A stretch of 64,000 bases of DNA from Methanobacteriota archaeon (GTDB lineage: Archaea > Thermoplasmatota > Poseidoniia > Poseidoniales > Thalassarchaeaceae): assembly GCA_019654055.1 (NCBI GenBank), contig BPDA01000001.1, positions 17,938-81,937 of the forward strand, in the 5' to 3' direction. How positions within the stretch are numbered: position 1 is the first letter of the stretch; every line of letters starts with the position of its first letter. Under the pieces are notes generated by a model, which did not search any database, was not told where the DNA came from, and was given only the letters and a program-made list of their open reading frames with translations. A program made the position numbers and the translations under genes. Shown in pieces: positions 863 through 35,562 of this stretch.

Positions 863-1606
863 TCAGTGCAGGGTCTCCAGCTGCGGTTTAATCACCGTGC
901 CGTGGGCATGACTGGCGACCACGGCCATCAGGATGGCGAAGACAAGCATCGACAGGATGCCGGGCGACGCCATCAGGAGCACGCCGCCAGCCCCGACCAC
1001 AACCATCTCGAAGATCATCTTGGCCTCGAGGAGGCCGTCCTCGGACCACGAGCGACCGCGAGCCTGCTTCAGCAGCCAGGCGGTGTAGACTCCAGTGAGC
1101 AGGGCCAGTGGGACTCCTGCGTAAGCCAGATACTCCAGATAGATTCGATCGAGGCCGAACAGCAGCACTGCCCCGCTGCAGGCCAGCACCCCTCCGAATC
1201 CCCCTAGCAGGTAGGCGCCCTTGACCAGCCACGAGTCCCAGTTCGGGCGCAGCATCACGTAGACGAAGCGCTCGGGACGGTCGAGGTCGAGGATTAGGAG
1301 GACCCCGGTCAGCCCGAGGAAGGCCGTGCAGCCGATGACCAGCCGCCACCACATCCCGTCAGTCATCTCCAGCATGCCAGAGAGCATCAAAGCCATCGCC
1401 AGCATGTAGGTCCCAGTTGCGATGGCCTTGGTCACCACGTACGCGGAGACCTCCCAGCCCCAGAGCACCCCCTTGGACGGCTGGTCGTACAAGCGCTTCG
1501 GCTTGCCCGCCTCCTCCTCCAGCCTCGACATAACGTCGTGGATGATTGCCCTGTCTCTTGGGGCGGCCGCCTTGGCCTTCTTCTCTAAGGCCAGTTGGAC
1601 TATCAT
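863..1606 (-). CDS. NrfD/PsrC-like integral membrane subunit of the Mo oxidoreductase (start uncertain, possibly up to ~1690)
   Basis: C-terminal 248 aa of ORF 863..2227 carries about 6 predicted TM helices and the NrfD-type loop LILDLDRPERFVYVMLRPNWDSWLVKGAYLLGG. The upstream ~200 aa of that ORF is S/T/P-rich off-frame overlap with the Fe-S gene. Confidence 0.55.
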   Translation of the reverse strand: MIVQLALEKKAKAAAPRDRAIIHDVMSRLEEEAGKPKRLYDQPSKGVLWGWEVSAYVVTKAIATGTYMLAMALMLSGMLEMTDGMWWRLVIGCTAFLGLTGVLLILDLDRPERFVYVMLRPNWDSWLVKGAYLLGGFGGVLACSGAVLLFGLDRIYLEYLAYAGVPLALLTGVYTAWLLKQARGRSWSEDGLLEAKMIFEMVVVGAGGVLLMASPGILSMLVFAILMAVVASHAHGTVIKPQLETLH

Positions 1607-1691
1607 CGAGTGGGTGTCGGCGGCGCCGGATCTCTGCTCGGCGTACTTGGCGAAGTGGCCTACGCCCGCAGCCTGGTCTGTCCACAGGTAC

Positions 1692-2277
1692 TCACCGGAG
1701 CGCTCGGTCGGGATGAGGGTCGAGACTATCTTCACTGGTCTCGACATAGAACACGTTCGGCTTGGCGCCGGACTCGGGCTTGCGCACGATGGTCTCGTGC
1801 TCGTTGAGGTAGCCGGAGATTGACGAGTTAGGGTCATCGAGGTCGCCGGAGATGATGGCCTCGACAGGGCAGACGACGACGCAGGACGGCTCGTAGGAGT
1901 GCTCAATTCGGTGGGCGCAGTAGTTGCACTTAGCCGCAGTACCTTTGTTCGGGTCGATGTACAGGGCATCGTAGGGGCAGGCCTGCATGCAGGACTTGCA
2001 TCCGATGCAGCGATCATCGTCGAAATCGACGATGCCGTCCTCGCGGGTGAACAGCGCTGTGGTGGGGCAGATCGTCGTGCAGGGAGAATCCTCGCAGTGG
2101 TTGCAGCGGTGGACGCTGAACTCCCTAGTGACATCGGGATAGGTACCCTTCTCGATGTACTTGACGTGGGTCCGGTTGACTCCGATTGGGACATCATGCT
2201 CGGACTTGCAGGCGACCGTGCAGGCATGGCAGCCGATACACTTCCTGTTGTCTATCACGAAGCCGTAATTGACCATG
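1692..2277 (-). CDS. 4Fe-4S ferredoxin-type electron-transfer subunit (PsrB/TtrB/NrfC-like)
   Basis: MVNYGFVIDNRKCIGCHACTVACKSEHDVPIGVNRTHVKY...CNHCEDSPCTTICPTTALF...CIGCKSCMQACPYDALYID...CNYCAHRIEHSYEPSCVVVCP, four CxxCxxC(xxxCP) clusters. ATG at 2277..2275. Confidence 0.8.
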
Positions 2278-3497
2278 GTCCGCCCTCTATGAGGGCGGAC
2301 AGGCCCTTTCGGCAAATGAGCCTTCTCCAACCACATACAAGCAGGCTTACTATGCCTAAAGCTCACTATCCAGGTTCCTATGCTAGATCCAATGTTCCCC
2401 AACATTGTCACTAGAAGCACCTTCCCGACCTTGTTCCTCCAGAATAGGGAGGCGCTGTCCAATGCAAGGAATTCCTGTGCGTCCCTACCGGTGGGAGCGA
2501 CGACCTTCAGCTGCGTGTATCCAGCGAACCAACCCGCTGCGAGAGTCGGGTTCAGGGACGTAATCGGTGAAGCCACAGACCCGACCAGAATCGAGAGAGG
2601 ATGCCCTCTAGCGAGCAGGACGCCTAAACCAGTCAAGCTCGCATTGACGACTAACCATGCCGCAGCTGTCTGCTTTAGAGCATCCATTTTTCCCGTGTAA
2701 CCCATCCAAGCCACCGCACCTAGGAGGAACAGAGGTATGGCGATCATCAGCACCTTGGGCCAGATTGATTTTCCGGGTTCCTCGCTGAGCTCCTTGAGTC
2801 TAGAGGCGGACTCCATCGCTGGTTCTGACAATTGATCCTGAACTCCCTCTAGGTGACCAGCCCCGATTACGGCGAGCACCTTGCCCCTGCCCCTGATCTG
2901 CTGTATCCTGCCTGCTAGGAAAGCATCCCTCTCGTCTATCAGAACGGAGCCGGCCGCCGGCGCCACCTCTCGAGCCTCCTCCATCAGGTTGCTGAGCATG
3001 TCCGAGTCCTCGAGCAACTCCTCTATCGAGGCCTCCTCCTCGTCGTCCTCCTGCCACAGTAAGGCGTCCAGGACCCGGAACTTCTCTCTGAAACCCATCT
3101 TCGACCAGGCCCTCCTGAGGGTTATCACGACATCCCTGTCGATCAGTTCCACCGGGACTCCCGCCTCGTCGGCAGCCTCGATTGCAGCCAGCAGCTCCGC
3201 CCCGGGCTTCTCGCCTGAGGCGATGCCCATACGACGCTGCTCGGCGGCCAGCGCCGACTGCAGCAGGATCATGTGCGACCTACCCTCATTGAGGATTTTC
3301 AGCAGGTCCTCGTTGTCCAGCCCGTCCGGCTCCAGTAACGCTGCCTTGCGTGACTCGCACAGCTCCACTGCGACCAAGTCCGGCCGCCACTCCGCGATCT
3401 GCTGGCGTACTAGCTCGACGGAGACACTACTGACGTGGGCGGTGCCGACCAGCCTCAGCCCATCGTCTATGTCGACGACGTTCCTCTGAGCTCCCAT
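2278..3497 (-). CDS. TraB/PrgY/GumN-family protein, in frame with the downstream Fe-S subunit gene (no stop codon between them)
   Basis: MGAQRNVVDIDDGLRLVGTAHVSSVSVELVRQQIAEWRPDLVAVELCESRKAALL... is TraB-family-like, with a C-terminal hydrophobic region. The ORF 1692..3497 continues without a stop into the ferredoxin-type subunit. Confidence 0.6.
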
Positions 3498-5060: not shown

Positions 5061-5613
5061 GCGCGTGACCGAAGCCCCCAGACCCAGGATATCCGTGCTC
5101 AGGCTCGGCCACCGGCGCGAGCGTGACAAGCGGATTACGTCGCACCTCGGGCTGACCGCCCGTGCCTTCGGGGCTGACGAGGTCATACTTTCTGGTGAAG
5201 AGGACCCTTCGGCCATAGAGACTTGGAACTCGGTGACAGAGAGGTTCGGCGGTGACTTCGAGTGCCGCTACGAGGCCAAGCCCATGAGTTGGCTGCGACG
5301 GTTCTCGAAGGGCGGCACGGTGATCCACCTGACGATGTACGGGGAGCCCTGGAGGGAGGCCGTCGACGACATCCCTCTAGATGCACCCGCTACCGTCGTC
5401 GTCGGCGGGACCAAGGTGCCAGGTGAGTTGTTCAAGCTAGCCGACCACAACATCTCGATAGGCAACCAGCCTCACTCCGAGGTCGCCGCCCTAGCGGTCT
5501 TCCTCGAGTCGTGGGTAGGCCCTCTCGACGAGTCCGAAAGGTTCGTCGGAGGGGAGATCGAGGTGGTCCCCAGCGAGCGTGCCAAGAGAGTCAGAAACCA
5601 CTCTGGCGAGTGA
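5032..5613 (+). CDS. tRNA (cytidine56-2'-O)-methyltransferase aTrm56 (SPOUT family)
   Basis: ISVLRLGHRRERDKRITSHLGLTARAFGADEVILSGEED...IHLTMYGEP...ISIGNQPHSEVAALAVFLE matches the aTrm56 signatures LRLGHRxERDKRxTTHVALTARAFGA and IGNQPHSEVAALAV. The start may be ATG 5032 (overlapping the upstream gene) or a GTG near 5064. Confidence 0.7.
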   Translation: MLMRHPLSSERVTEAPRPRISVLRLGHRRERDKRITSHLGLTARAFGADEVILSGEEDPSAIETWNSVTERFGGDFECRYEAKPMSWLRRFSKGGTVIHLTMYGEPWREAVDDIPLDAPATVVVGGTKVPGELFKLADHNISIGNQPHSEVAALAVFLESWVGPLDESERFVGGEIEVVPSERAKRVRNHSGE

Positions 5614-5647
5614 GTCCCGGAAGCCCCGGGCGCCCATTTCATTCTCA

Positions 5648-7013
5648 ATGATTAAGAGGGGTACTCCAGCAGGATTGCTGATGTCGGGTACGGCACCGTC
5701 GCGGGGCTTTGTCCCCGGCGCTGGCGTACCGGGGGTGAATAATCCCCCTTCCTTCGCCGATGCTGCCGACTCACTGCTCGAGCCAGCAGAGCGTCAGCAG
5801 GCCAGCGGCGAGTCCGGGCTGCTGCTGCTGGCTGATGGCACCAGCTACGAGGGCAGGCTGTTCGGTTCCGAGGGCATAGCGCAGGGTGAATTGGTGTTCA
5901 CCACCGGCATGTGCGGCTATCAAGAGAGCCTGACCGACCCGTCCTTCGCAGGACAGGTCCTGACATTCACGTGGCCCCTGCTGGGCAACTACGGCATACT
6001 CCCTGGAATCTCCGAGTCCTCAGGAGTCCACCCGCGTGGCGTCGTGTGCAAGGAGCTGATGAAGGTCCCCGACCACCGTGACTCGGTTGGCAGCGTGCAC
6101 GATTTCCTCGCAGCTCACGGCGTCCCCGGAATCGAGGGGGTCGATACACGCTCTCTTACTCGCAGGGTGCGCGAGCACGGAACAGTACTGTGCGTCTTCG
6201 GCCCCAAGGACCGGGCTGCCGAGATGAAGCAGACACTGAGGGAGATGACCCCACCCGACGCCGACGACCTAGTGGCCTCGGTGACCCGAGGGGATGCCGT
6301 ACTGCTCAACCCCGGAGGCTCAGGACGGCGACGGCAACCCACTGCCCCGACTCGCTGCACTGGATTGCGGAATCAAGCACAACATCCTGCGCGAGCTTTG
6401 CCAGCGCTTCGAGGTCGTCTGGTGCCCCGCTTCCATGCCCTTCGACGAGATCGTCTCCGAATGGCGGCCAGACGCCCTGTTCGCATCCAACGGCCCGGGC
6501 GACCCCGCCCATCCCGGCGATGCCACCTCGGCGCGAGAGTCGCTTGCAGCCGCCGTGCGCGCGGACATGCCGGTGATGGGAATCTGCCTCGGCCATCAAC
6601 TGATGGGCCTTGCAGCGGGCCTGCGCACCTACAAGTTGCGGTACGGCCACAGAGGGGCCAACCAGCCCGTGGTAGACCTGCGCACGGGCAAGGTCAACAT
6701 CACCAGCCAGAACCACGGCTTCGCCGTCGAGGACCCGGACAAGGGTATGCTAGCACCGCACCCCAGCGGAGCCCACTCCGACACCGGCGAGAACGCTCTG
6801 GAGGCGGACTTCGAGGTTCGCCACATCAACGCCAACGACCGAACCGTGGAAGGCCTCGACTTGGTCGGCAAGCCCGCCTTCACCATCCAGTTCCACCCCG
6901 AGGCCTGCCCTGGCCCCCACGACGCCTCGCCGCTGTTCGACCGCTTCTCCGAGATGGTGGCTGAGCATCTTGCAGGCGGCCAGAGGGCCGTGGTCAAGGG
7001 AGGTGATAGCTGA
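5648..7013 (+). CDS. carA: Carbamoyl-phosphate synthase small subunit, interrupted by an apparent 1-nt frameshift near 6303-6312
   Basis: N-domain in the frame of ORF 5579 (LLLLADGTSYEGRLFGSEGIAQGELVFTTGMCGYQESLTDPSFAGQVLTFTWPLLGNYG...). Glutamine amidotransferase domain in the frame of ORF 6294 (RLAALDCGIKHNILREL...SNGPGDP...GICLGHQLM...QFHPEA). The switch lies inside aaccccggaggctcag. There is a ~50-aa N-terminal extension. Confidence 0.8.
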
Positions 7014-9937
7014 TGCCGAGGCGCGAGGACATCAGTAAGGTGGTCATCTTGGGCAGCGGGCCGATTCGAATCGGCCAAGCAGCCGAGTTCGACTTCTCGG
7101 GCTCGCAGGCCTGCAGAGCCCTACGGGCGGACGGTTACGAGGTCGTCCTAATCAACTCCAACCCAGCGACCATACAGAACGACCCCGAGATGGCCGACCG
7201 GATCTACATCGAGCCGCTGCTGCCCGAGGTGGTCAAGCGCATAATGGAGCTTGAGAAGCCCGATGCTCTGCTGGCAGGGATGGGTGGGCAGACCGCGCTA
7301 AACATCGCCGCAGCCCTAGCCCATGACGGCTCTCTCGACGAACTGGGCGTCGAACTCATTGGCTGCAACCTCACGGCCATCGAGGAGGCTGAGGACCGCG
7401 ACCTGTTCAAGAAGGTCTGCGAGGAGATCGACCTGCCGGTGTGCAAGGCGATAGCCTGCGACTCGATAGAGCAGGTGCTGGAGTCCGTAGACCAACTCGG
7501 CGGATTTCCCCTACTAATCAGGCCGGCATTCACCCTCGGCGGATTGGGTGGAGGTACCGCGTACAACACCGGTGAACTGGTCGAGATAGCCAGTCAGGGC
7601 ATCCTGCACTCCGCGATAGGGCAGGTGCTGATCGAGGAGAGCATACTGGGCTGGCAGGAGCACGAGTATGAGGTGATGCGAGATGACGCCGACAACGCCA
7701 TCATCGTGTGCACCATGGAAAACCTCGACCCTATGGGTGTCCACACCGGCGAGTCCGTGGTGGTAGCCCCCCAGCAGACGCTCTCCGACCGGGACCACCA
7801 GGTCCTGCGCGACGCTGCGCTCAAGCTGATCAGGAGGCTGAACATCAGAGGAGGGTGCAACGTGCAGTTCGCAGTCGAGCAGTCCACCGGCGAGTACCGC
7901 GTCATCGAGGTCAACCCCCGAGTCTCCCGCTCCTCCGCCCTCGCATCGAAGGCCACCGGGTATCCGATCGCCCGGATGGCGGCCCTCATCGCAGTCGGTT
8001 ACACGCTCGATGAGCTGCCGAATCCAATAACCGGCGAGGGCACCACTGCCGCCTTTGAGCCGACCCTAGACTACTGTGTGGTCAAGATACCTCGCTGGCC
8101 CTTCGACAAGTTCCGCACAGCCGACCGCACGATCGGCACCTCGATGAAGTCCACCGGCGAAGTGATGGCGATAGGCCGCGGCTTCGAGGAGGCCTTCCTC
8201 AAGGCATGGTCGAGCCTTGAGTATGGACAGCCCCACCCCAGACCTCTGACCATGGCAGACGCATCAGGCGGCGAGTCGATGGATGAGCGAGCCTTCGAAC
8301 CACTCCCCGAGGCCCTTCTAGAGGATTGGCTTAGGGTACCTAGCGACAGGCGCATGGGAGCCCTGTTCGAGGCCTTCCGCCGTGGCTACACCACAGAGGA
8401 CGTGCGCGACATGACAGGAGGGGTCACGCGCTGGTTCCTGCACCGGTTTGAGAACATGGCCGCCATCGAGACCGAGATACGCGCGGCTGGCGAGATCGGC
8501 CTCAATCCGGCTGATGTGCCGGAGGAGGAGATGAGGATGTGGAAGGGCGCCGGCTTCACTGATTTACACATCGCCGACGCGCTGGCCGGCTTCCCAGCCA
8601 GCGGGTTCAAGCTCCTGTCCGAAGGCTCCGACGAGTTCGCAGTCACCCTAAGGCGCCACCAGCTCGGAGTGCATCCAGTGTTCAGGATGGTTGACTCGTG
8701 CGCAGCCGAGTTCGCTGCTGTCACCCCGTACTACTACACCACCTACGAGGGAGGCTCGGCATCGGGCGGAATCGACTACGTGCCCGGACTCGAAGAGTCA
8801 CTAAAGCAGAGGATTGTGGTCATCGGCTCGGGTCCGATACGGATAGGTCAGGGAATCGAATTCGACTACGGCTGCGTCCACGCGGTCGGCGCCATCCGCG
8901 AACTCGGCCACGAGGCCATCATCATCAACAACAACCCTGAAACCGTCTCCACTGATTTCGACACGAGTGACAGGCTATACTTCGACCCACTAACGCTCGA
9001 GGCCGTCTCCGAGATACTCCTCAGAGAGAGGGCCCACGGCATCCTGCTACAGTTCGGCGGGCAGACCGCCATCAACCTCGCACTACCCCTCTCGGACAGC
9101 CTCACACACCTCTCGACCCTCGGGCTTCACCTGGTCATGGAGGGCACTTCTCCCGATGCGATTGACGAGGCCAGCGACCGCGAGCGCTTCGAGGAGTTCG
9201 CCGCCCGAAATGGTCTGAGGATGCCGAGGGGGTCGACGGCGACCACGCCGGATGAGGTCAGGCAGGCCGCCCATGAGATCGGCTATCCTGTGTTGATTCG
9301 CCCCTCCTACGTATTGGGAGGAAGGGGGATGGAGATACTCTCGAACGACAAGCAGTTGGAGGCCTACATGGAGGAGGCGTTCCTCGCCCCCGACCGCCCG
9401 CTGCTGATTGACGAGTACCTCGGCAACGCGATTGAGCTTGACGTAGACGCGGTGTGCGACGGCGAGGAGGTGCTAGTGGGCGCCATAATGGAGCACCTCG
9501 AGGAGGCAGGTATACACTCAGGCGACTCGACCTGCTTTATCCCACCGCAGAACATCCCCGAGCACGTCCTCGCAGAGGTCGAGGATTGGACCAGAAAGAT
9601 CGGCATCGAACTAGGCATCAGGGGCTGCTACAACATCCAGTTCGCCATCCGCGATGAGGTCCTGCATGTGCTCGAGGTCAACCCGAGAGGCTCGCGCACC
9701 TTCCCGTTCGTGGCCAAGGCGACCGGTGTGCCGCTGGCTAGGATCGCCGCTAGGCTCGCGCTGGGAGAGAAGCTCAGCGAGCTCAACGTACCGGAGCCGC
9801 AGACCGATGCGGTCTGCGTCAAGGCACCCGTGTTCCCTTTCATCAAGTTGCGAGGCCTCGACCCAGCGCCTGGCCCGGAGATGAAGTCCACAGGTGAGGT
9901 GATGGGTTCGCATGCGAGGCCGGCCGCCCCTCCCTGA
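7013..9937 (+). CDS. carB: Carbamoyl-phosphate synthase large subunit (two ATP-grasp halves; C-terminal MGS-like allosteric domain missing from the intact ORF)
   Basis: 974-aa ORF MPRREDISKVVILGSGPIRIGQAAEFDFSGSQACRALRADGYEVVLINSNPATI..., the second half-repeat RIVVIGSGPIRIGQGIEFDYGCVHAV..., and both MKSTGEVM motifs. The ORF stops about 18 codons after the second MKSTGEVMG. carA and carB overlap ATGA-style at 7013. Confidence 0.9.
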   Translation: MPRREDISKVVILGSGPIRIGQAAEFDFSGSQACRALRADGYEVVLINSNPATIQNDPEMADRIYIEPLLPEVVKRIMELEKPDALLAGMGGQTALNIAAALAHDGSLDELGVELIGCNLTAIEEAEDRDLFKKVCEEIDLPVCKAIACDSIEQVLESVDQLGGFPLLIRPAFTLGGLGGGTAYNTGELVEIASQGILHSAIGQVLIEESILGWQEHEYEVMRDDADNAIIVCTMENLDPMGVHTGESVVVAPQQTLSDRDHQVLRDAALKLIRRLNIRGGCNVQFAVEQSTGEYRVIEVNPRVSRSSALASKATGYPIARMAALIAVGYTLDELPNPITGEGTTAAFEPTLDYCVVKIPRWPFDKFRTADRTIGTSMKSTGEVMAIGRGFEEAFLKAWSSLEYGQPHPRPLTMADASGGESMDERAFEPLPEALLEDWLRVPSDRRMGALFEAFRRGYTTEDVRDMTGGVTRWFLHRFENMAAIETEIRAAGEIGLNPADVPEEEMRMWKGAGFTDLHIADALAGFPASGFKLLSEGSDEFAVTLRRHQLGVHPVFRMVDSCAAEFAAVTPYYYTTYEGGSASGGIDYVPGLEESLKQRIVVIGSGPIRIGQGIEFDYGCVHAVGAIRELGHEAIIINNNPETVSTDFDTSDRLYFDPLTLEAVSEILLRERAHGILLQFGGQTAINLALPLSDSLTHLSTLGLHLVMEGTSPDAIDEASDRERFEEFAARNGLRMPRGSTATTPDEVRQAAHEIGYPVLIRPSYVLGGRGMEILSNDKQLEAYMEEAFLAPDRPLLIDEYLGNAIELDVDAVCDGEEVLVGAIMEHLEEAGIHSGDSTCFIPPQNIPEHVLAEVEDWTRKIGIELGIRGCYNIQFAIRDEVLHVLEVNPRGSRTFPFVAKATGVPLARIAARLALGEKLSELNVPEPQTDAVCVKAPVFPFIKLRGLDPAPGPEMKSTGEVMGSHARPAAPP

Positions 9938-10304
9938 AGGCACGACTCGCACGGAGTTCCCGTCCAGTCGAGGGGGGGTCTACATCACCGTCAAGGAGGG
10001 ACAAGCTAGCCATAATGACGAGGCCCGCGGGCTGCAGGAGATGGGTTCACCTCTATGCCACCAGGGGACAGCCCACGTGCTGCGCATGTAGGGGGCTGAG
10101 TAAAGACCTGCTACAGGTTTGCCGAGCGCCGTAGCCCGATGCCCTAGACCTATGGGGCAAGGCAAGATTCACCTCGTCATTAACACACCACGCTCGACCG
10201 GAGGGGCAGTACTAGATGGGAACATGATGCGCAGGCTCGCAGTCGAACTCAACATTCCTTCGTCACCACAATGGCAGGCGCTCACATGGAGGTCGAGGCG
10301 ATAG
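9938..10304 (+). pseudogene. Degenerate remnant of the carB C-terminal MGS-like domain, spread over three frames with in-frame TAG/TAA
   Basis: Frame fragments GGVYITVKEGQ..ARGLQEMG..HQGTAHVL and RPMGQGKIHLVINTPRSTGGAVLDGNMMRRLAVELNIP align to the CarB MGS-like domain (LLSVREGDK..KLLKQGFEL.ATHGTA..L ... [31 protein letters not shown]). They are separated by frame switches and by the stops TAG and TAA near 10088-10105. Confidence 0.5.
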
Positions 10305-10396
10305 ACGAGGCGATGAAGGGAATGCCAGAGCCAAGGCTCCTAGAGATAGGATCACTAGAATGAGAAAAGTGAAATTTACTCCTCAGAGCATATATA

Positions 10397-10404
10397 TTTA
10401 TATA
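10397..10404 (+). promoter_or_regulatory. Archaeal TATA box (tttatata) about 24 nt upstream of the ATG of the island HTH gene; implies a leaderless transcript
   Basis: gcatatatatttatatacccctcaagtgtcccccctATG; the spacing is typical of archaeal BRE/TATA-to-start distance. Confidence 0.35.
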
Positions 10405-10423
10405 CCCCTCAAGTGTCCCCCCT

Positions 10424-10657
10424 ATGACCCCTCAAAGGAGAGCAACTGAGGACGATGTCAAGGCTATCTTCTGTTATCGCGGAGCGGGTTTCTCTCTGGA
10501 TGAGACTGCTGACTATACCGGCCTCACTCGCCACACTGTTTCCTACCAATTGAGGAAGCTCAGGTACTCTGCAGAAGATGGCGGTATTTCTGAGGTTCTA
10601 CGTTCTCTGGAGTTAGTAGATAACTCTGAATTGATCAAAATGGAACTCAACTTCTAG
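10424..10657 (+). CDS. Small helix-turn-helix DNA-binding protein (77 aa)
   Basis: DDVKAIFCYRGAGFSLDETADYTGLTRHTVSYQLRKL has a classic HTH pattern (hydrophobic core, G turn, TxxTVxxxLxKL recognition helix). Confidence 0.5.
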   Translation: MTPQRRATEDDVKAIFCYRGAGFSLDETADYTGLTRHTVSYQLRKLRYSAEDGGISEVLRSLELVDNSELIKMELNF

Positions 10658-11472
10658 AGATTTCCAAACTTCTCATGGAGAATTTGACCTCCAGGATAGT
10701 TAAGCAATCTCGAGGATCCTTACGATGGTGTCGAACCAGATTTCTAGAGGGAGAGTGGGAAGAACCAGCAAAAATCGAATCGATGCCATTAGGTCATTTC
10801 TGTTAGTGAGATGTATGATATTGACGGCACCGAACTCCTGGTTATAGGTTCGATATTGGAAGACTCAAATCCATGATGGGTTTTCTTGAGAATAGGGGGC
10901 ACAGGGTATTTTCCTCATCACCGTTTCCACACACTCCCTTTCCCAGTACACACCGAGGAGTTTTGTGATGAACAGGGCAAGGAGATCATGGCTAGAAAGG
11001 AGAACTCAGGGAAGTTACTTGTTCTGGAGATCACGACCCATACTACAGGGAGGAACTCGCACAGCACGACACACTTGTCACAAATAAACCCTTGATTGCT
11101 ACCCCTCCCCTTTCCCCATTCAGGCCCAGATTTCTGGATTTAGTTGGGAGGGGCCAGAGCCCACTTTCAGCAACCTTCCCGAGTTAGAGAACCCCGTTGT
11201 GAAGGAAGAACCGGATGTCCCAAAACCGTGCTAGGGGAGTAGTCTATGCGATGTTATCTCAAAGGAATCCATCCACCAATCAAAAATTCATTTCAAAGTC
11301 GCTTCGGAAATTCTGGGGCTGAAGTGGGAAGAACAGGTCAAGTGGCCAAGAGGATGGGCCAAGCAACTCAAGCAGAAACTGCAACTCTCAGGTAAGACGT
11401 TCTCTATTCAGTTAAAGCATCTGATGGGGGATGAGATTACGATAAATAATTCAATAGTCAGGAGGATTATTA

Positions 11473-11964
11473 TTGACGATTAACCTCCAAGAATCATCCC
11501 AACAAATTGTCGTATCTATTGATGGGATGAGCGTCGCTTTCTCGCAACTCGCTAGCCAGAAATTCGACTGTGATCGGATTCGAGCATGTGTCCAATATTT
11601 CGAGGAACTTGATGTTGACATCAAAATCGCACTATTTATGCCCGCGTACATCGAGAATGAGGATTTCAGAAAGGAGATGAAATCTCGTAGTAATCTCGAT
11701 CTACATTTGGTAACGGGAATGAGGCCAAAATCTCCTCGAGATGACAAGTATACTCTAGGGGAGACCGTGCTTTCAGACGGTTTCTTCGTGTCAAACGACA
11801 AAAGAATGCATGAACATAGTAAAAATAAACTGGTAGACAGAGCTTGGATCTCAAGCAGGAGGATTGGGTTCCGTTTCGGGAAAGGCCCAGTCTTCATCCC
11901 AGGATTTCCGGAGCAATGGCACAAGGTGTGCGCAGAACTCCGATCTCCAAGGGATGGCAATTAG
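11473..11964 (+). CDS. Zc3h12a/NYN-like (PIN-related) ribonuclease domain protein
   Basis: TTG start 6 nt after GGAGGA. IVVSIDGMSVAF...IALFMPAYIE...LVTGMRPKSPRDDKYTL...DGFFVSNDKRMHE parallels the Regnase-1 NYN motifs (VVIDGSNVAMS / VFVPSW / LVFTPSRR..DD / DGIVVSND), including the candidate catalytic Asp residues. Confidence 0.65.
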   Translation: MTINLQESSQQIVVSIDGMSVAFSQLASQKFDCDRIRACVQYFEELDVDIKIALFMPAYIENEDFRKEMKSRSNLDLHLVTGMRPKSPRDDKYTLGETVLSDGFFVSNDKRMHEHSKNKLVDRAWISSRRIGFRFGKGPVFIPGFPEQWHKVCAELRSPRDGN

Positions 11965-11987
11965 GAGGTGATAGAATAGCCAAGAAA

Positions 11988-12104
11988 ATGAATAGAAGTG
12001 CAGCTGCACGAATTCAGCGTGCTGGAGCTAAGCGAGGCAGCGCTGGAAAGAAAAGCTTCTCCGCCAGAGCGCAGAGAGCGGCAGCGAAGAACTCCAGAAA
12101 GTGA
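11988..12104 (+). CDS. 38-aa Lys/Arg/Ala-rich basic peptide (MNRSAAARIQRAGAKRGSAGKKSFSARAQRAAAKNSRK)
   Basis: Preceded by AGGAGGTGA 16 nt upstream; immediately downstream of the NYN gene stop; resembles KGG-repeat-type small basic stress peptides. Below the ORF-track length cut-off. Confidence 0.35.
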   Translation: MNRSAAARIQRAGAKRGSAGKKSFSARAQRAAAKNSRK

Positions 12105-12137
12105 GTACGTGGCGCCCTAGGTATGGCGTAAAACTGC

Positions 12138-13698
12138 CTAAATTAGGGTTTCAAAATCAGGCCTTTCCATCTCTGCCATGATGGACGCCACGCGTGGCCC
12201 GTGGCTCTTTCCAAGGATGATCCAATACAGTGCGACATAGGCTTCACCCCCGTAAATTTCCCGGGCTTCGGTTGCAACCAATCTGATACAATCACCAATT
12301 GCCTTGGCAGTCCACTCACAGTCACTGATGGCACTGCTCAATGAAGAAAGAAACGCATTTTGCTCATCGGTCAGGTTGGTGCGTACTTCTTCACTAACAC
12401 TCGATTGCACCTCAACCTTGGCCGCATCCGGGAAGTGCGGGCCATCGACCCAGTTCCGCATCCTGCGCAACCTACCAGCAAGAGGTGCCCCGGGATCCCC
12501 CTCTAGGTGCCCCGACCTGCGCAGGGAGCCCACACGTCATCATCGCTCGACTTAATCTGCGCGAGCTTTGGCGAGATGCCGGAAGGAAACCCGCAATAAA
12601 ATTCAGAGGGTTTTGACCCCCCTTGACCTGACTGAGCCGAGTGCCCCAATTGGGTGTCCCGACCCACCTGCGGGCGCCGAAAACCCCTTCTTCCGACCCC
12701 CGGGGAGGCCCCGCCCCAAACCGCTCGTACTCGTCAGCGGTCGTGAACAGGGCGGGCCCCCGTATCGAAGTCGATGTGGCGCCCCACCTTGCTCCTGCGA
12801 TGACGTAACGCATAATCTCAGGGGGAACTAGGGCTAGGGCGTCCATAGGCCCCACAGTCAACCCCTTCGAGCTCGACATCGGCCCCATTCCCTTAGCTGG
12901 ATCCACTCGTAGACCATCTTGTGAGGCGGCTCGCTGCCCAGCATCTCGCAGTTTGGTATCCCGGTGTCGTAGCTGCCCCCGGCGGCACCGTGGCCCTTTT
13001 CCCCCGGGCTCGCAGGTGATGCCGTGGATGCCCCACTTGGCGGCCCAGTCGATTCTCCAGGGAATTTTCCCTGGCAGTCCTGATGCCCAAATTCCCTCGA
13101 GCCTTGCTGTCGACCCAGTGCACGTGCGGATGCTCGTATCCGGTTACGCTGACCCCGTCGATCTGCCGTCGGAGCCGAGGGGGTTGTACGGAAACCAGTC
13201 TTCGGGCCCCTTCCCTCCGGAGACCTCCTCGATGACTCGACGAATTTCGTCCCTCTGCTCAATCGCCGAGTGGGTCTTATCGGCGAAGGCACCGCTCTCG
13301 TAGGTCTCGTGGTTCATCACGACCTCTGGCTCGACCCCTATCTGCTTGAGCGCTGCTAGAAAGGGAGCGAGGAAGTGGTCAGCGTAGCTTCCGCCATCCT
13401 GACCCGGCTCCCCGTCCGGCCCTGGTGCCGGGATGTATGCCAGTGGGTGGCCGATGTACTGCTCGTAGGAGGGCGAGAGGAAGTCGTAGACCCTGCGCAG
13501 GGGGTCCATCGAGTCGACGATGAAGATGTAGCGCGAACCCCTTCCCGCGTCTAGGCAGGCGCGGTGAATCATCTCGGCAGTCAGTATCTCGCGCAGGTGG
13601 CCGACGTGGAACTCGCCAGAGGGAGTTATTCCCGAGGCGATGACCTGTGATTCGCCACGCACCCTCAGAGTCTGCGCGGTGTGGTCCGCCCAGTGCAT
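12138..13698 (-). pseudogene. lysK: Class I lysyl-tRNA synthetase, fragmented by an in-frame TAA and at least five frameshifts
   Basis: Intact N-terminal 184 aa with HIGH motif (SGITPSGEFHVGHLREILTAEMIHRA). Later conserved blocks GKIPWRIDWAAKWGIHGITCEPGGKG, HGAAGGSYDTG...EPPHKMVYEWIQL, KGMGPMSSSKGLTVGPMDALALVPPEIMRYVIA and the C-terminal EIYGGEAYVALYWIILGKSHGPRVASIMA lie in alternating frames. TAA sits right after DWFPYNPLGSDGRSTGSA. Confidence 0.75.
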
Positions 13699-13707
13699 TC
13701 TACTCCC

Positions 13708-14290
13708 TCAGACTGAAACTACTCTGACCAGTCCACGGAGGGGCACGCCCTCGAGCTCGTTGTTGTTCGACTTGTTGGCGAGCACCATACAGAGTTTGAC
13801 GTCAGCTCCCGCTGACCTGAGGTTCCTGATGGTCTTGCTCATAGTGGTTCCAGAGGACAATACGTCGTCGACCACGACCACGCTCTTGCCGGCCACGCCA
13901 GCGAAGACCTCGGAGAGGTGGCCGCCCTCTCCTCGCTAATGCTCCTGCTGATTGATAGATCGAGGTCCATCTGCCCCGCTATGGCCTGAGCGAAGGCGAT
14001 TCCGTTGAGGCTGATGCCCACTATCGCATCCACCTCATCACCAATCTCCTCCTCGATGATGTCACGAAGATGTAGGAGGCGGCCTCTATCCTTCCGGCCT
14101 TGACCGCGATTGATCTCCAGCCTACCTGGATGTCCGAGGGGCGGTCCTCGGTGGCGACCCCGCTCGAGGACAGCCACTGGATGGTAGTCTGGGACAGCGA
14201 GAGCTCGTCGGCTATCTGCTGGGTGTTCAGACCCTTGTTGCGAAAAGTCTCGACCTTGCCTCGCAACTCCTCTATACTGAGTGGCATCAA
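13708..14290 (-). CDS. GfcR/PyrE-like regulator (N-terminal HTH + phosphoribosyltransferase domain), split over three frames
   Basis: HTH piece (LNTQQIADELSLSQTTIQWLSS, ORF 14021..14290). PRT N-part (VDAIVGISLNGIAFAQAIAGQMDLDLSISRS, frame of ORF 13839..14300). PRT binding motif (KSVVVVDDVLSSGTTMSKTIRNLRSAGADV, ORF 13708..13896). Confidence 0.6.
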
Positions 14291-14359
14291 ACCGCCCCAC
14301 CGCTGGCTATCTATGAACTCACCGGGGATGGAATGTGGGTAAAACCCGTCTTTGGGGCG

Positions 14360-14808
14360 CTAGAAGCGCCCGGTGCTGCCAAAACCGCCCTCTCCACGCT
14401 CGGTCTCCCCTAGCTCCTCGAAGTCGACTTCGCGGAAACTGAGGTCGGGTATCGGCGAGATCAGCATCTGGGCTATCCTCTCGCCGGCCTTGACCGTGTA
14501 CGAGTCCCCCTCACCTATCCAGGTCATCAGCACGAACAGCTCACCTCGATAGTCCGCGTCGATGGTGCCGATGCTGTGCGGCAGGATGAGGCCCTTGGAG
14601 CCCAGCGAAGAGCGCGCCCTCACCTGTCCCTCGTAGCCCACAGGGATTGCCACATGGAGCCCCGTACGCAGCTTGACACTCTGGCGGAACGGCACTGACG
14701 TGTCCTCGAGCGCGTACAGGTCCCAGCCCGCGGCGTGCTCGCTTCCCCTAGTCGGCACCTCGCATCGGGGTGGGTCCGTGCCACCATGACCTCGAGCCCC
14801 CCGTCCAT
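14360..14808 (-). CDS. dut: dUTP diphosphatase, with an apparent 1-nt deletion near 14765
   Basis: RGSEHAAGWDLYALEDTSVPFRQSVKLRTGLHVAIPVGYEGQVRARSSLGSKGLILPHSIGTIDADYRGELFVLM...GERIAQML...GFGSTG are dUTPase motifs I-V. The N-terminus MDGGLEVMVARTHPDAR lies in another frame; the switch is inside ccccgatgcgaggtgccgactagg. Confidence 0.75.
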
Positions 14809-14898
14809 GGGTCCCGTTCTCCGCCCCGGTCTTTGACCGTTCGCAAGCCGCTGATGACGCCCGGTGGGGTGAAAAGGGGGCCATGATTCGGCAGGCCG

Positions 14899-15426
14899 AT
14901 GGCCGACTACGAGTACGATGCCCTGCTCGACCGTGCGCGCGAGCGCATACCCAAGGACATCAGCGAACGCTCGCGCTGGACCATGCCCGAGCCGGACATC
15001 CTCATCGAGGGTAGCCAGACCATCCTGAGGAACTTCGCCGACGTGGTCAATGCGATGGACCGCGACGCCAACCACGTCTACCAGTTCCTGCTCAACGAGC
15101 TAGGTACCTCAGGCACCCGTGAGCAGGTCCGTGTGATGTTCAAGGGACGCGTTCCCCCTGCCAGGATTAAGGAGAAACTAGTCGCCTACGTCAAGGCATT
15201 CATTCTGTGCGACCAGTGCCGCGCACCCGACACCCGCTTCATCAAGGAGGGCAGGACCAGCCTGCTGAAGTGCCAGGCCTGCGGAGCAACCCTAGGCCAG
15301 TCAGGCTCTGAGTCTGCGGACTGCTTTGGCCCCATTGCCGAATGCCGGAGGAATCGACCTCTCGGAAGACATCGAGTTCGTTGCAATGGCGACGTCCTCG
15401 CGATGATGGTTCCCGGTGGGATGTAG
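14899..15426 (+). CDS. Translation initiation factor 2 beta subunit (aIF2-beta); ORF about 30 aa longer than usual at the C-terminus
   Basis: YEYDALLDRARERIPKD...MPEPDILIEGSQTILRNFADV...HVYQFLLNELGTSGTREQVRVMFKGRV...VKAFILCDQCRAPDTRFIKEGRTSLLKCQACGA carries the eIF2-beta C4 zinc ribbon. Confidence 0.8.
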   Translation: MADYEYDALLDRARERIPKDISERSRWTMPEPDILIEGSQTILRNFADVVNAMDRDANHVYQFLLNELGTSGTREQVRVMFKGRVPPARIKEKLVAYVKAFILCDQCRAPDTRFIKEGRTSLLKCQACGATLGQSGSESADCFGPIAECRRNRPLGRHRVRCNGDVLAMMVPGGM

Positions 15427-16445
15427 TCAGGAGAAGTCGAGCAGGATCTTCCCGCGATTCTTGCGGTCGTGCATGTGCCTCTGGGCCTCGGCGACCTCTC
15501 GAAGCGCCATACTGAGTCGATGACCGGGTCTACCTGGCCTTTGAGGAGCATGCCCGAGAGGGCTTCGAGATGCCCCTTGAACACAGACTCGTCATCCAGC
15601 AGCCCCATGTGGACCCCGAAGACTGCCTTGTTCGAACGCATCATCTTCAACGGGTCGAACTTGGGCGTCGATGCCCACATCCTGAGGGCCGTCACCATGG
15701 AGCGCCTGTCTCCCTTGACGGCTGCTGAGGCTCCGAAGCAGTAGAGCCTGCCACCGCGTCGGAGTGCCTTGTAGGAGCGCATCAAGTGGTTGCCTCCGAC
15801 AGGATCTATGGCGTGGTGAACTCCCTTTCCACCAGTCATTGACTTGCATACCGTGACGAAGTCCTCGGACTTGCTGTCGACGAAGTGCATCCCTAGCGAC
15901 TCGACGAATTCTCTCTTTGGGGTCGATGCGGTGCCAATGACTGTGGAGGCTCCGTACGCTTTGCAGATCTGGGCAACGGCAGTACCCACGCCTCCGGCAG
16001 CGTGGTGGACGAGTACGGTCTCCCCTTCTGACAGGTTGCCCAGATGCACAAGCATGTGGTAGGCAGTACCGTAGGTCACCGGGATGGCTGCAGCTTGGTC
16101 GAACGAGATTGAGTCTGGTATCCGAATCACCCGCCCGGCGTCTAGGGCAATCTGCTCGGAGTAGCCTCCGAAACCGGTCATCGCCAGCACCCTGTCCCCC
16201 GAATCCAGGCCCTCGACATCGTTTCCGACCTCGATTACCTCACCGGGCCCTGCTTCGTAACCGGGTGTGAAGGGGTAGTCAGGGTTCGATCCGTACAGTC
16301 CCTGGCGCATCATCAGGTCTGCGAAGTTGATTCCAGCTCGGTGTATGCGAACGGTGACCTGACCGGGCCCGGGCACCGGGTCATCGACCTCGACTATGCG
16401 TATCGAGTCGACCCCGCCGACCTTAGGGTACACCACCTTGCGCAA
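15427..16445 (-). CDS. Zinc-type alcohol dehydrogenase / quinone oxidoreductase (MDR family), frameshift near 15500
   Basis: MRKVVYPKVGGVDSIRIVEVDDPVPGPGQVTVRIHRAGINFADLMMRQGLY...VLVHHAAGGVGTAVAQICKAYGA...; after ...DPVIDSVW the conserved C-terminus FERVAEAQRHMHDRKNRGKILLDFS* appears in the +1 frame, ending at TGA 15427. Confidence 0.7.
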
Positions 16446-16760
16446 TCAATCACCCATCAGGTACTCGCTGGCGACATCCCCGCCCGCAAGGTGCTGCAGT
16501 ATCCGCCCCATCCCCTCGTCGTCTTCTGGCAGGGTGTACCATGTCCCCTCGGGGTAGACTACGCATGACGGCCCGCTCTCGCAGTTGTCAAGGCAGCCCG
16601 CCTTGTTGACGCGCACGTCCTTCAGCCCCTCGGCTTTCGCGGCTCGCTTCAGGCGAGTAAGGATCTCGAGTGAGTTCTTGGCAGCGCAGCACCCGCGCGG
16701 ACTCTCTGGGGACCTCTCGTTAGTACATACGAAAACGTGCATCCTGAACTGGTGCGTCAT
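16446..16760 (-). CDS. Thioredoxin-like [2Fe-2S] ferredoxin
   Basis: HVFVCTNERSPESPRGCCAAKNS...VNKAGCLDNCESGPSCVVYPEGTWY shows the four-Cys pattern of the Fdx_thiored / NuoE-like family. Confidence 0.65.
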   Translation of the reverse strand: MTHQFRMHVFVCTNERSPESPRGCCAAKNSLEILTRLKRAAKAEGLKDVRVNKAGCLDNCESGPSCVVYPEGTWYTLPEDDEGMGRILQHLAGGDVASEYLMGD

Positions 16761-16768
16761 CCCCTCAC

Positions 16769-17095
16769 CTATATCTCATCGAACTTGGCTGCGAGTACGA
16801 AGTCAGACTCGGTAAGACCGTCAATCTTGTGTGTCCAGATCTTCGCCATCACTCGGCCCCAGCCCAGCTCGAAGTCGGCATGGTGGCCCTGCTCCTCGCA
16901 GATGGCAGCGGCAGAGTTGGTGAACTCTAGGGCCGAGACGAAGTCTGGGAACGACCACACCCTCTCGAGGTGGTGACCGTCCACGACGTTCCACTCTTCG
17001 TGCACCTGAGGAATCAGGGTGGCGCACTCGCCCTCGCTCAAGGGAGGCACTCCTCCTTCGCAGGGCACGCATGTCCTCGATGATAGGTCGGCCAT
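16769..17095 (-). CDS. Pterin-4a-carbinolamine dehydratase (PCD/DCoH)
   Basis: CVPCEGGVPPLSEGECATL...WSFPDFVSALEFTNSAAAICEEQGHHADFELGWGRVMAKIWTHKIDGLTESDFVLAAKFD matches the PCD fold signature (E..HHP.....W..V.....TH..GL..D..LA). Confidence 0.7.
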   Translation of the reverse strand: MADLSSRTCVPCEGGVPPLSEGECATLIPQVHEEWNVVDGHHLERVWSFPDFVSALEFTNSAAAICEEQGHHADFELGWGRVMAKIWTHKIDGLTESDFVLAAKFDEI

Positions 17096-17098
17096 GGC

Positions 17099-17557
17099 TC
17101 AGCCCCACAGGTGGCTGTCGTCACTGCCGTCGGCACTGCGCTCGGCTTCCTCGTGCATGCTGGAGCGTCGACGCATGTCCTCCTTCTCGAAGGTCATGAG
17201 CTCCCTATCCTCGATGTAGGGGTGACGCAGGTGAGTGACCAGACGGACCTCGACAATCACATCCCTAGCGATGGAGCGGAACTCGCCGTTCTCGTCGAGC
17301 ACCTCCACCGCGCTCCTCGAGGTCCCAATCAGCATCCCCCTTACCCAGGGGTCAGTATCCGAGGGAAGCGCCCTAGCATCGAGCAACACCTCGATGATGT
17401 CGTCCTTCCTGAGCCCTGACTTGCGCTCCAGTAGGGGCCCGTGGAAAACATCGTTCAGGTCATTCAGGTCAGGCGAGCCGTACTCCTCGTATATCCTCCT
17501 AGCCCAGCCGGGCAGGTCATCGATTCTCTTGCCTCTACGCTTCGCAGTCATGGCCAT
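17099..17557 (-). CDS. Hypothetical protein (about 150 aa, basic N-terminus MAMTAKRRGKRIDDLPGW...)
   Basis: ORF 17099..17671, probable internal start. Divergent from the Nog1-like GTPase gene. No family recognised. Confidence 0.4.
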   Translation of the reverse strand: MAMTAKRRGKRIDDLPGWARRIYEEYGSPDLNDLNDVFHGPLLERKSGLRKDDIIEVLLDARALPSDTDPWVRGMLIGTSRSAVEVLDENGEFRSIARDVIVEVRLVTHLRHPYIEDRELMTFEKEDMRRRSSMHEEAERSADGSDDSHLWG

Positions 17558-17664
17558 GCGTGAGAGTGGTGATAGAAAAGGAGTCGGATGCCCCAAATCG
17601 GGCCTATGGCCCGAACTGGTGGCTTGAAGTGGGATGGTAGGGGCGCAAGGTCGGAGGGGAGCCC

Positions 17665-18696
17665 ATGGCATCGGTGGACTGGCGTCATATACCCACGGTT
17701 CTGTATCCGCAGGAGATCCTCGATAAGGCGTTCAGAAGGGCCAGCAAGCAGTCCGATCTCGTCGAGGACCCTGACAAGTACCACAGGGTGCGCAAGCAGA
17801 TGAACAGGATGGTGCAGGCAGCAGCCGATGTCATCGACACCACGCTGCTGAAGTGGGTCGCTAGGTGGCCGAGCCTGAACGCGCTTTCCGAGTTCGACCA
17901 AGCCTTGGTCGATGCGGCCGTTGGAAACGACGAGTACCGCAAGACCCTCGGTACGATCCAGTGGGGAGCAGAGCAGGTCCGCAAGATAGCGGGGGAGACT
18001 CAGAGGAAGATACTCCGGTTGCGCAGAATCGAGGGGTTCCACGATGCACGTCGCCATGCCTACGGCAGGTTCTCCTCTATACTGGACCAGATCTCGCCGC
18101 AGATACTGTGGCTCGGAGAGGCCCGTGATGTACTTCGCGAGCTACCTTCGCTCGACCCGGCCGAGCCCTGCATCGTAGTGGCAGGGGCTCCCAATGTGGG
18201 CAAGTCGGCTCTGATTACCGCGCTCTCGAGCGGAGAGCCCGAGGTCGCGTCATACCCGTTCACCACCAAACAACTCCACCTAGGGCACTTCGTGCATCGC
18301 AGGAGGCCCTATCAGATGGTAGACACACCGGGACTACTCGATAGGCCAATGTCGGAGCGCAACCGTATCGAGATGCAGGCAATCGCCGCCCTAGAGCACA
18401 TCGGTGACGCGCTGCTGTTCCTAGTTGATGCGACGGAGGGAAGCACATCTCCGCTAGACGAGCAGGAGCATCTGCTATCCGAGGTCAAGCAGCTGATGTC
18501 GGAGCGTCCGATGATAGTCATTCACAGCAAGAGCGACATCCTCGAAAGTCCTCCCGAAGGGGCGGAGACGTTAATCAGTGCACAGACAGGACATGGTCTG
18601 GAGGACCTCCGCGCGAGACTCATTGAGACGATTGCGGCTGACGTGGTGGTCGACCCTCTAAGCTTGCCTGAGAACTGGCACAGGAACGAGGAGTAG
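17665..18696 (+). CDS. NOG1-family GTP-binding protein (archaeal Nog1/Obg-like GTPase)
   Basis: N-terminal NOG1 region ILDKAFRRASKQ...; G1 GAPNVGKSALITALS; G2/G3 YPFTTKQLHLGH / DTPGLLDRP; G4 HSKSD. Confidence 0.75.
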   Translation: MASVDWRHIPTVLYPQEILDKAFRRASKQSDLVEDPDKYHRVRKQMNRMVQAAADVIDTTLLKWVARWPSLNALSEFDQALVDAAVGNDEYRKTLGTIQWGAEQVRKIAGETQRKILRLRRIEGFHDARRHAYGRFSSILDQISPQILWLGEARDVLRELPSLDPAEPCIVVAGAPNVGKSALITALSSGEPEVASYPFTTKQLHLGHFVHRRRPYQMVDTPGLLDRPMSERNRIEMQAIAALEHIGDALLFLVDATEGSTSPLDEQEHLLSEVKQLMSERPMIVIHSKSDILESPPEGAETLISAQTGHGLEDLRARLIETIAADVVVDPLSLPENWHRNEE

Positions 18697-18816
18697 TCAC
18701 TCGACCTTCCAGTGGTGACCGCATACCGTGCAGTAGAGCTTGTAGCCACCGAAAGAGAGCGGTAGTCCAGAGACGTCCACAGCCGTCCCGCAGAGTTCGC
18801 AGTTGCGGACTCGCAT
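18697..18816 (-). CDS. Small zinc-ribbon protein (39 aa; MRVRNCELCGTAVDVSGLPLSFGGYKLYCTVCGHHWKVE)
   Basis: CxxC...CxxC ribbon; starts 18816 and stops 18697, abutting the Nog1 stop. Below the ORF-track cut-off. Purely sequence-based. Confidence 0.35.
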   Translation of the reverse strand: MRVRNCELCGTAVDVSGLPLSFGGYKLYCTVCGHHWKVE

Positions 18817-35476: not shown

Positions 35477-35562
35477 TGGTGCAGAGGGCAGGATTCGAAC
35501 CTGCGAAGCGCTAAGCACCGGAGTTTAAGTCCGGCCCCTTTGACCAACTCGGGTACCTCTGC
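35477..35562 (-). tRNA. tRNA-Leu (anticodon UAA), long variable arm, CCA encoded
   Basis: Reverse complement GCAGAGGTACCCGAGTTGGTCAAAGGGGCCGGACTTAAACTCCGGTGCTTAGCGCTTCGCAGGTTCGAATCCTGCCCTCTGCACCA. It has a 7-bp acceptor stem, a D-arm, an anticodon stem CCGGA/TCCGG with loop CTTAAAC, a 16-nt variable arm, a GGTTCGAATCC T-loop and a terminal CCA. Confidence 0.85.

Follow-up and report, generated by a model that had tools for sequence, protein, structure and literature searches.

Frameshifts in an archaeal lysyl-tRNA synthetase gene beside a low-GC island are very probably consensus errors of a long-read metagenome assembly

Spurious frameshifted "pseudogenes" are a known fault of unpolished PacBio and ONT consensus sequences, and the fault is worse when close strains co-occur. 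Genuine pseudogenes of aminoacyl-tRNA synthetases (aaRS) are found in endosymbionts and in reductive evolution of the Mycobacterium leprae type. In this study, we analyzed a 64-kb stretch of DNA (the window) containing lysK, the gene for an archaeal class I lysyl-tRNA synthetase (LysRS), which is broken by frameshifts in the deposited sequence. The original prediction, made from the window alone, offered two alternatives, a locally very poor assembly or a dead lysK with a backup LysRS elsewhere, and left them unranked.

The window belongs to the Marine Group II metagenome-assembled genome (MAG) CM1_200m.P32 from Pacific seawater at 200 m (Hiraoka et al., NAR 2022, PMC8919816). The CM1_200m data (BioProject PRJDB11069) comprise PacBio Sequel CCS reads of five or more passes, >99% accuracy and a mean length of 4.3-4.9 kb, and these HiFi reads were assembled with wtdbg2; a polishing step (HyPo) is mentioned for the ONT contigs alone, and the ONT data come from another sample only (PMC8919816). 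The assembler merges aligning 256-bp bins, pops bubbles and computes a partial-order-alignment consensus over edge sequences, in a single consensus round (10.1101/530972); this consensus is not allele-aware. In a benchmark of two other HiFi metagenome assemblers, which did not include wtdbg2, indels and mismatches rose sharply as the co-assembled genomes grew more similar (PMC10984382).

The lysK product and its breaks

The gene lies on the minus strand, with an ATG start at 13698-13696 and a TAG stop at 12140-12138. Once the indels are removed, its product contains no internal stop, retains all conserved motifs and is 92% identical to the intact protein of L081, one of three near-identical short-read contigs (L081, L082 and L166; Table 1). 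The frame-corrected product matches TIGR00467 (lysS_arch) over the full length with 356.8 bits (intact L081, 388.8 bits; cut-off, 147.55); residues 1-330 match the catalytic domain PF01921 with 299 bits, and residues 421-511 correspond to PF19269 (Anticodon_2), the C-terminal anticodon-binding domain. The statement in the original prediction that all LysRS-I blocks are present and ordered, in alternating frames, is borne out by the motif positions and by tblastn, in which full coverage of lysK takes all three minus-strand frames. We take HVGH and MSSSKG to be the HIGH-type and KMSKS-type signature motifs of class I enzymes. A single uninterrupted lysK ORF is absent from the window and present in L081, L082 and ten GTDB relatives, and judging from these comparisons the real gene almost certainly encodes an ordinary, intact and essential class I LysRS of 522 aa.

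The orthologue is encoded at 80 loci of GTDB species representatives; all ten full-length relatives that were translated carry an uninterrupted 525-aa lysK, and at two further loci the gene is cut off by the end of the contig. A natural split or frameshift hot-spot in the lysK of Marine Group II was considered and rejected, as the break points differ between matches and the examined genome loci are ORFs of 522-525 aa. The matches returned by protein searches were all at most 310 aa long and many were frameshifted, which looks like a bias of the search towards short proteins.

Relative to L081, lysK carries 12 frame-breaking indels of 1-2 nt, comprising nine deletions (11 nt in total) and three single-base insertions, all within 13162-12528, together with two 3-nt events that keep the frame (13106 and 12263); the indels were also placed by a G-INS-i alignment of the window lysK with ten full-length orthologues. 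The shattering described in the original prediction is therefore real, although "at least six frame segments" was an undercount, since the 12 indels divide the gene into 13 segments. Frame-breaking indels are absent from the first 536 nt and from the last 390 nt of the gene, so that all 12 fall within the central 635 of its 1561 nt (P ~2e-5 under an even spread), and the differences from L081 are patchy, occurring in patches of 10-70 nt between perfectly identical stretches. With 12 events per 635 nt, against one event per 7.7 kb in neighbouring sequence as measured with two close relatives (Poisson P ~2e-22), the damage density is indeed well above the window average, as had been claimed.

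The first lysK ORF (13698-13144, 184 aa) ends with ...GSDGRSTGSA followed by the TAA. This stop codon does close the ORF at the predicted point, but its description as in-frame was an over-reading: the intact L081 gene carries the same GTA-ACC bases in frame, and the TAA is not an independent nonsense mutation because the reading frame has been shifted by the deletion at 13162. The 184-aa stump is identical to the NCBI protein CM1200mP32_00340, encoded on a contig of 170,797 bp from a MAG recorded as "Methanobacteriota archaeon"; the prefix of this locus tag is that of MAG CM1_200m.P32.

Table 1. Features of the window and near-identical contigs (positions refer to the window)
Feature	Position	Strand	Remarks
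lysK, class I lysyl-tRNA synthetase	12138..13698	-	522 aa once the frame is restored; from profile scores and intact relatives
First lysK segment, codons 1-178	13163..13698	-	No indels; aligned to L081
Three small garbled patches in first lysK segment	13541-13537, 13405-13403, 13216-13206	-	Amino acids altered, frame kept
HVGH block	13608-13597	-	Conserved with relatives
TAA closing first ORF	13146-13144	-	Out-of-frame GTA-ACC (Val-Thr), 5 codons past 1-nt deletion at 13162
Dense noise zone of lysK	12528..13162	-	12 frame-breaking indels and clustered neighbour-copying substitutions
Frame-breaking lysK indel sites	13162, 13075, 13008, 12894, 12796, 12761, 12682, 12644, 12638, 12592, 12571, 12528	-	Relative to L081
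WRIDWAAKWG block	13059-13030	-	
HGAAGGSYDTG block	12992-12960	-	
MSSSKG block	12879-12862	-	Conserved with relatives
VSFRHLA block	12590-12567	-	
Clean lysK 3' part (anticodon-binding end)	12138..12527	-	Identical to L081 and L166 apart from the garbled patch of the next row
Garbled patch in lysK 3' part	12248-12266	-	Includes a 3-nt insertion
Second dense noise zone, carB 3' end	9928..10259	+	18 deleted nt and 18 substitutions, mostly transversional
Low-GC island	10369..12129	.	1761 bp; GC 0.466 against 0.599 for the window; between carB and lysK
Island gene 1, 354-aa protein with N-terminal HTH in relatives	10424..11483	+	Shattered; 77-aa ORF 10424-10657, then frame changes
Island gene 2, NYN/Zc3h12a-like RNase domain protein	11473..11964	+	163 aa, intact; PF11977, E = 5e-12
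HTH-phosphoribosyltransferase (PRTase) gene	13708..14300	-	1-nt deletions at 13930 and 14064; intact, 217 aa, in L082
dUTPase-family gene (-), aIF-2 beta (+, 14899-15426) and adjacent sequence	14360..15498	.	Isolated indels at 14758, 15293 (+2), 15382 and 15498
Contig L081 (ENA UPTF01001235)	5394-10368		98.9% identity over this range, identical over most of lysK; SPAdes, coverage 21
Contig L082 (ERZ724561 NODE_168)	13250-18698		~99.3% identity over this range
Contig L166 (Tara Oceans CEVQ01132536)	11474-12527		99% identity over this range

Damage around the low-GC island

As the original prediction noted, lysK adjoins a low-GC island; yet the ~400 nt of lysK on the island side are clean. The island, not lysK, lies at the centre of the damage, which spans 9.9-15.5 kb (~5.6 kb), roughly one read length of the library. 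On the far side of the island, the ORF of carB (carbamoyl-phosphate synthase large subunit) ends early at 9937 (974 aa) instead of at 10363, with its last ~140 codons broken, and this noise mirrors that of lysK across the island. To the right of lysK, isolated indels disrupt the genes for the PRTase, the dUTPase and aIF-2 beta, and between 15.5 and 18.7 kb no frame-breaking indel relative to L082 was found. Within the span, the stretches 11474-12527 (bar the patch at 12248-12266) and 10260-10368 are clean. The rest of the window consists of long, essentially continuous ORFs of high GC3, with a background of about one indel per several kb; carA, for example, is split by a single 1-nt insertion at 6316.

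The island is an insertion relative to L081, in which the flanks abut directly, and AAAA is present at both junctions. Its first gene is damaged as well: the 354-aa protein of a marine contig, L161, matches two frames of the window in tblastn, and comparison with L161 shows ~12 short frame-breaking indels in 10646-11264; HTH matches for this gene are weak. The NYN protein encoded by the second gene is 99% identical to a Tara protein (P0121), and a homologous two-gene cassette follows carB in five marine contigs (L161-L165; 78% identity). A scan of viral contigs with the NYN protein gave no match, nor did a PADLOC search with both island proteins. Taken together, the sequences indicate that the island is a real accessory cassette (HTH + NYN RNase) that is present or absent between close strains. 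The idea that the island replaces the C-terminus of lysK, which ends with ...SLISET in GTDB relatives, was discarded, as the island-less L081 has the same ending as the window, ...ERPDFETLI.

Near-identical contigs and the spectrum of differences

Alignment to the closest available genome, proposed in the original prediction as a check, was decisive. Three independent short-read contigs from other ocean samples turned up in a scan of metagenomes for the frame-corrected protein and in a look-up of the island NYN protein. They match the window at 99-100% identity directly beside the damage, and each of them lacks every window indel that it covers. L081 contains an intact 522-aa lysK, an intact 1122-aa carB ending with ...EIGSLE and no island. 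In L082, lysK, the HTH-PRTase gene, the dUTPase gene and aIF-2 beta are all intact. L166 carries the island NYN gene joined to the 3' end of lysK exactly as in the window and sides with L081, against the window, at 12528, 12571 and 12592, the three indel sites within its coverage, which takes in only the last 96 nt of the lysK noise zone; L081, as stated, is island-less, and neither contig comes from the sample of the window.

By synteny and identity, the organism falls within Marine Group IIb (Thalassarchaeum-like). A 23-kb multiple alignment with relatives of ~80% identity revealed 35 window-unique indels whose lengths are not multiples of 3, against 0-5 unique indels of this kind in each of the four closest short-read MAG references; these window-unique indels form the dense cluster in lysK and are otherwise scattered. 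When divergence from the ~80% relatives was divided by codon position, third-position divergence equalled that among the references, and second-position mismatches were 3.5-fold higher, a result that fits either noise or decay.

In a three-way comparison over 12528-13216, the window shows 49 unique substitutions, 15 indel columns of its own and 18 further sites with a different base in each of the three sequences, compared with ten unique substitutions and no indels for L081 and no indels for L082; the window-unique differences amount to ~10% of this damaged stretch of 689 nt. In the clean flanks, 27 of 4534 nt (0.6%) are substituted relative to L081, with 23 transitions among these changes (85%), and there is one indel. 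The ~10% divergence and the dozen indels are not neutral decay, because the surrounding synonymous sites remain ~99% identical.

The differences in the noisy zone are also of another kind. There, 67 of 80 substitutions (84%) copy an adjacent base, where 46% would be expected at random (P = 7e-12), whereas only 7 of 27 (26%) do so in the clean 4.5 kb (Fisher P = 7e-8, noisy against clean); transitions account for 54% in the noisy zone and 85% in the clean zone, and deletions outnumber insertions in the noise. An insertion beside a deletion, once aligned, appears as a neighbour-copying "substitution", and this is an error mode of the PacBio type and not a natural mutation spectrum. Several indels lie in G/C runs. 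Plain homopolymer error can be set aside, as the isolated deletions at 13162, 13930, 14064, 14758, 15382 and 15498 are not in such runs, and it is the neighbour-copy signature that describes the noise. A consensus drawn from L081-type and L082-type alleles would fit in part only, as the noise starts at 13216, where both alleles are identical; where the alleles differ, the window is mostly L081-like.

Origin of the frameshifts

Based on these comparisons, we consider it very probable that the lysK frameshifts are consensus errors of the deposited assembly rather than mutations of the organism. The evidence argues for an artefact and not for a dead gene because near-identical short-read contigs lack the indels, and of the two alternatives in the original prediction it is the locally very poor assembly that these intact contigs, the island-centred damage and the technical spectrum of the differences favour. 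Most likely, strains with and without the cassette formed a bubble at the island in the assembly graph, and wtdbg2 popped this bubble and then computed its one consensus round blind to alleles. The path through the island was probably covered by very few reads, by conflicting reads or by both, and the outcome would be ~5.6 kb of raw-read-like errors, consisting of single-base deletions and of insertion-beside-deletion "substitutions". As to the exact technical cause, a single read of poor quality and a consensus made from several strains are both conceivable.

Besides the differing sample origin and limited coverage of the reference contigs and the merely partial fit to a mixture of L081-type and L082-type alleles, two points count against this explanation. 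HiFi reads of >99% accuracy should not show ~10% error; given that accuracy, the fault would therefore lie either with the consensus of the assembler or with a read rated better than it was. In addition, the sequence next to the island is clean at 12130-12527 and at 10260-10368, where a simple picture of a messy boundary predicts otherwise.

The other alternative, a genuine pseudogene in a strain whose lysK has decayed and whose lysine charging is taken over by another lysK or by a class II lysS elsewhere, seems to us very unlikely. The frameshifts do stand in the deposited sequence, where the submitter's annotation shows the 184-aa stump only. No second lysK was found by tblastn in the window, a search that spans 64 kb of a genome of ~2 Mb, so that another LysRS outside it is conceivable. 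A backup synthetase is unneeded, however, and decay is contradicted on several counts: the disruptions are not reproduced in L081, L082 or L166 at the sites covered; the stretch with ~10% unique divergence is embedded in flanks that are ~99% identical; the damage sits mid-gene within lysK and is not bounded by the gene, extending to carB, the island gene and the PRTase, dUTPase and aIF2-beta genes; the neighbour-copying, transition-poor spectrum is unlike that of the natural polymorphisms nearby; and indels are far too frequent relative to substitutions for natural decay.

Real local hypermutation or error-prone repair around the cassette insertion, leaving both flanks scarred in the island-bearing strain, would account for damage inside and on both sides of a strain-variable cassette and perhaps for the bias towards G among the changes (39 of 80, read on the coding strand of lysK), but we give it even less credence. 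The naturally island-bearing L166 is intact at its covered indel sites, the sequence directly beside the island is clean, and several essential single-copy genes would have been inactivated at once; we know of no mutagenic process that generates 84% neighbour-copying substitutions together with 1-nt deletions, as PacBio-type errors do. Taken literally, this explanation would posit a hypermutated zone of ~5 kb around a mobile HTH/NYN-RNase cassette, with lysK, carB and neighbouring essential genes inactivated in an island-bearing subpopulation of Marine Group II, which we regard as highly improbable; its carriers might be, for example, a dying or dependent lineage, DNA of non-viable cells or a virus-packaged fragment. 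Programmed recoding, by which lysK would be expressed through ribosomal frameshifting or RNA editing, has nothing in its favour beyond the apparent breakage of an essential gene and is virtually inconceivable. Within 635 nt it needs 12 shifts that vary in sign and size and share no slippery motif, and close relatives encode the same protein in one frame; the intact orthologues, with flanks at 99% identity, all but refute it.

The shattered lysK, real in the deposited file, is thus almost certainly not a feature of the organism, and with a normal lysK almost certainly present its biological weight is low. Its value is that of a quality warning: in at least one stretch of ~5.6 kb of the deposited MAG, the consensus is poor enough to break at least six genes (carB, the island gene, lysK, the PRTase gene, dUTPase and aIF2-beta), with scattered single-base frameshifts elsewhere, such as that in carA. 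The truncated proteins pass into gene catalogues, pseudogene counts, completeness estimates and protein databases, and the 184-aa stump is already listed in NCBI nr as a "hypothetical protein". Error hot-spots of long-read metagenomes can fall at strain-variable islands, precisely where readers might be inclined to take the errors for biology.

Compared with the archaeal class I LysRS family (TIGR00467, PF01921), the window product matches end to end and above the curated cut-offs, whereas its ORF is broken 12 times by breaks unique to its assembly. With the genuine aaRS pseudogenes of endosymbionts and of reductive evolution, the locus shares multiple frameshifts in a recognisable essential gene; those pseudogenes, however, are damaged over the whole gene, have neighbours of comparable divergence, show a natural spectrum and are reproducible across isolates, and the window displays none of these properties. 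Its errors differ from the usual errors of long reads in being unusually concentrated (patches of 0.3-1 kb that differ by ~10%) and in not falling mainly in long homopolymers. The pseudogenes of unpolished PacBio and ONT consensus sequences nevertheless share with this locus an unpolished assembly, here a wtdbg2 metagenome, a deletion bias among indels of 1-2 nt, neighbour-copying substitutions and short-read assemblies of the same lineage in which the gene is intact.

An accessory cassette at the carB 3' end

The low-GC island between carB and lysK, the class I lysyl-tRNA synthetase gene, is a genuine two-gene accessory cassette (Table). Several marine contigs of Marine Group II (MGII) have a homologous cassette, 78% identical, next to the 3' end of carB; the island cassette is also carried by the Tara Oceans contig L166 and is missing from L081, a 99%-identical short-read contig. 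When L166 and the window are compared 5' of the start codon of the NYN gene, no nucleotide similarity is recognisable. Neither PADLOC nor comparison with viral contigs returned a match for the cassette, and the tRNA-Leu(TAA) gene shows no association with the island.

Table. Features of the window (window positions, nt)
Feature	Position	Strand	Remarks
Overlapping ORFs	863-2227, 1692-3497	minus	different frames, ~500-nt overlap
carA ORFs	5579-6964, 6294-7013		overlapping
Low-GC island cassette	10369-12129		two genes
Island product 1			354 aa; N-terminal HTH
Island product 2			163 aa; predicted NYN/Zc3h12a-like RNase
HTH-PRTase gene	indels 13930, 14064		intact in L082
dUTPase-family gene	indel 14758		intact in L082
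aIF-2 beta gene	indels 15293, 15382		intact in L082
Further isolated indel	15498		
tRNA-Leu(TAA) gene	35477-35562	minus	sole tRNA gene of the window

A divergent lysK 3' allele

Upstream of ~13050, the short-read contig L082 is ~99% identical to the window, yet the 3' third of its lysK is strongly divergent, with 115 differences in 398 nt (window 12130-12750 against L082 5950-6544), and its LysK C-terminus is of the ...SLIREV type, as compared with ...RPDFETLI in the window, L081 and L166. This pattern suggests that a natural recombination breakpoint lies within lysK, adjoining the island insertion site.

Frame disruptions in other genes

At the carB 3' end (9928-10363), ~14 short deletions are present, and the carB ORF of the window ends at 9937 (974 aa); the intact carB of L081 encodes 1122 aa and ends at the equivalent of 10363. 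On the other side of lysK, the indels of 13708-15498 are isolated and have no substitution patches alongside them; they disrupt the HTH-PRTase, dUTPase-family and aIF-2 beta genes (Table). A further isolated frameshift, located beyond the main noisy span around the island, is found in carA, in which a 1-base insertion at 6316 (CCTCCGG versus CC-CCGG in L081) produces two overlapping ORFs. Comparison with relatives that share 80% identity placed 1-nt indels unique to the window at 1709, 2339 and 2364, within the two long overlapping ORFs of the minus strand (863-3497); this is possibly a further frameshift error, or else a pair of indels that compensate each other.

Truncated LysK proteins in the database

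Many database matches to the lysK N-terminus are truncated as well, each with an out-of-frame tail (P0018, P0022, P0028, P0030, P0035, P0037 and P0071); their break points vary from protein to protein, and several are encoded on ENA contigs 1.6-2.1 Mb in length. The C-terminus of protein P0003 (...VSYTHLTLPTNREV) may be an artefact, translated from a sequencing adapter where a contig ends. The truncated matches look like frameshift errors of other long-read MGII assemblies, in which case lysK stumps of this kind would be common in the protein collection.
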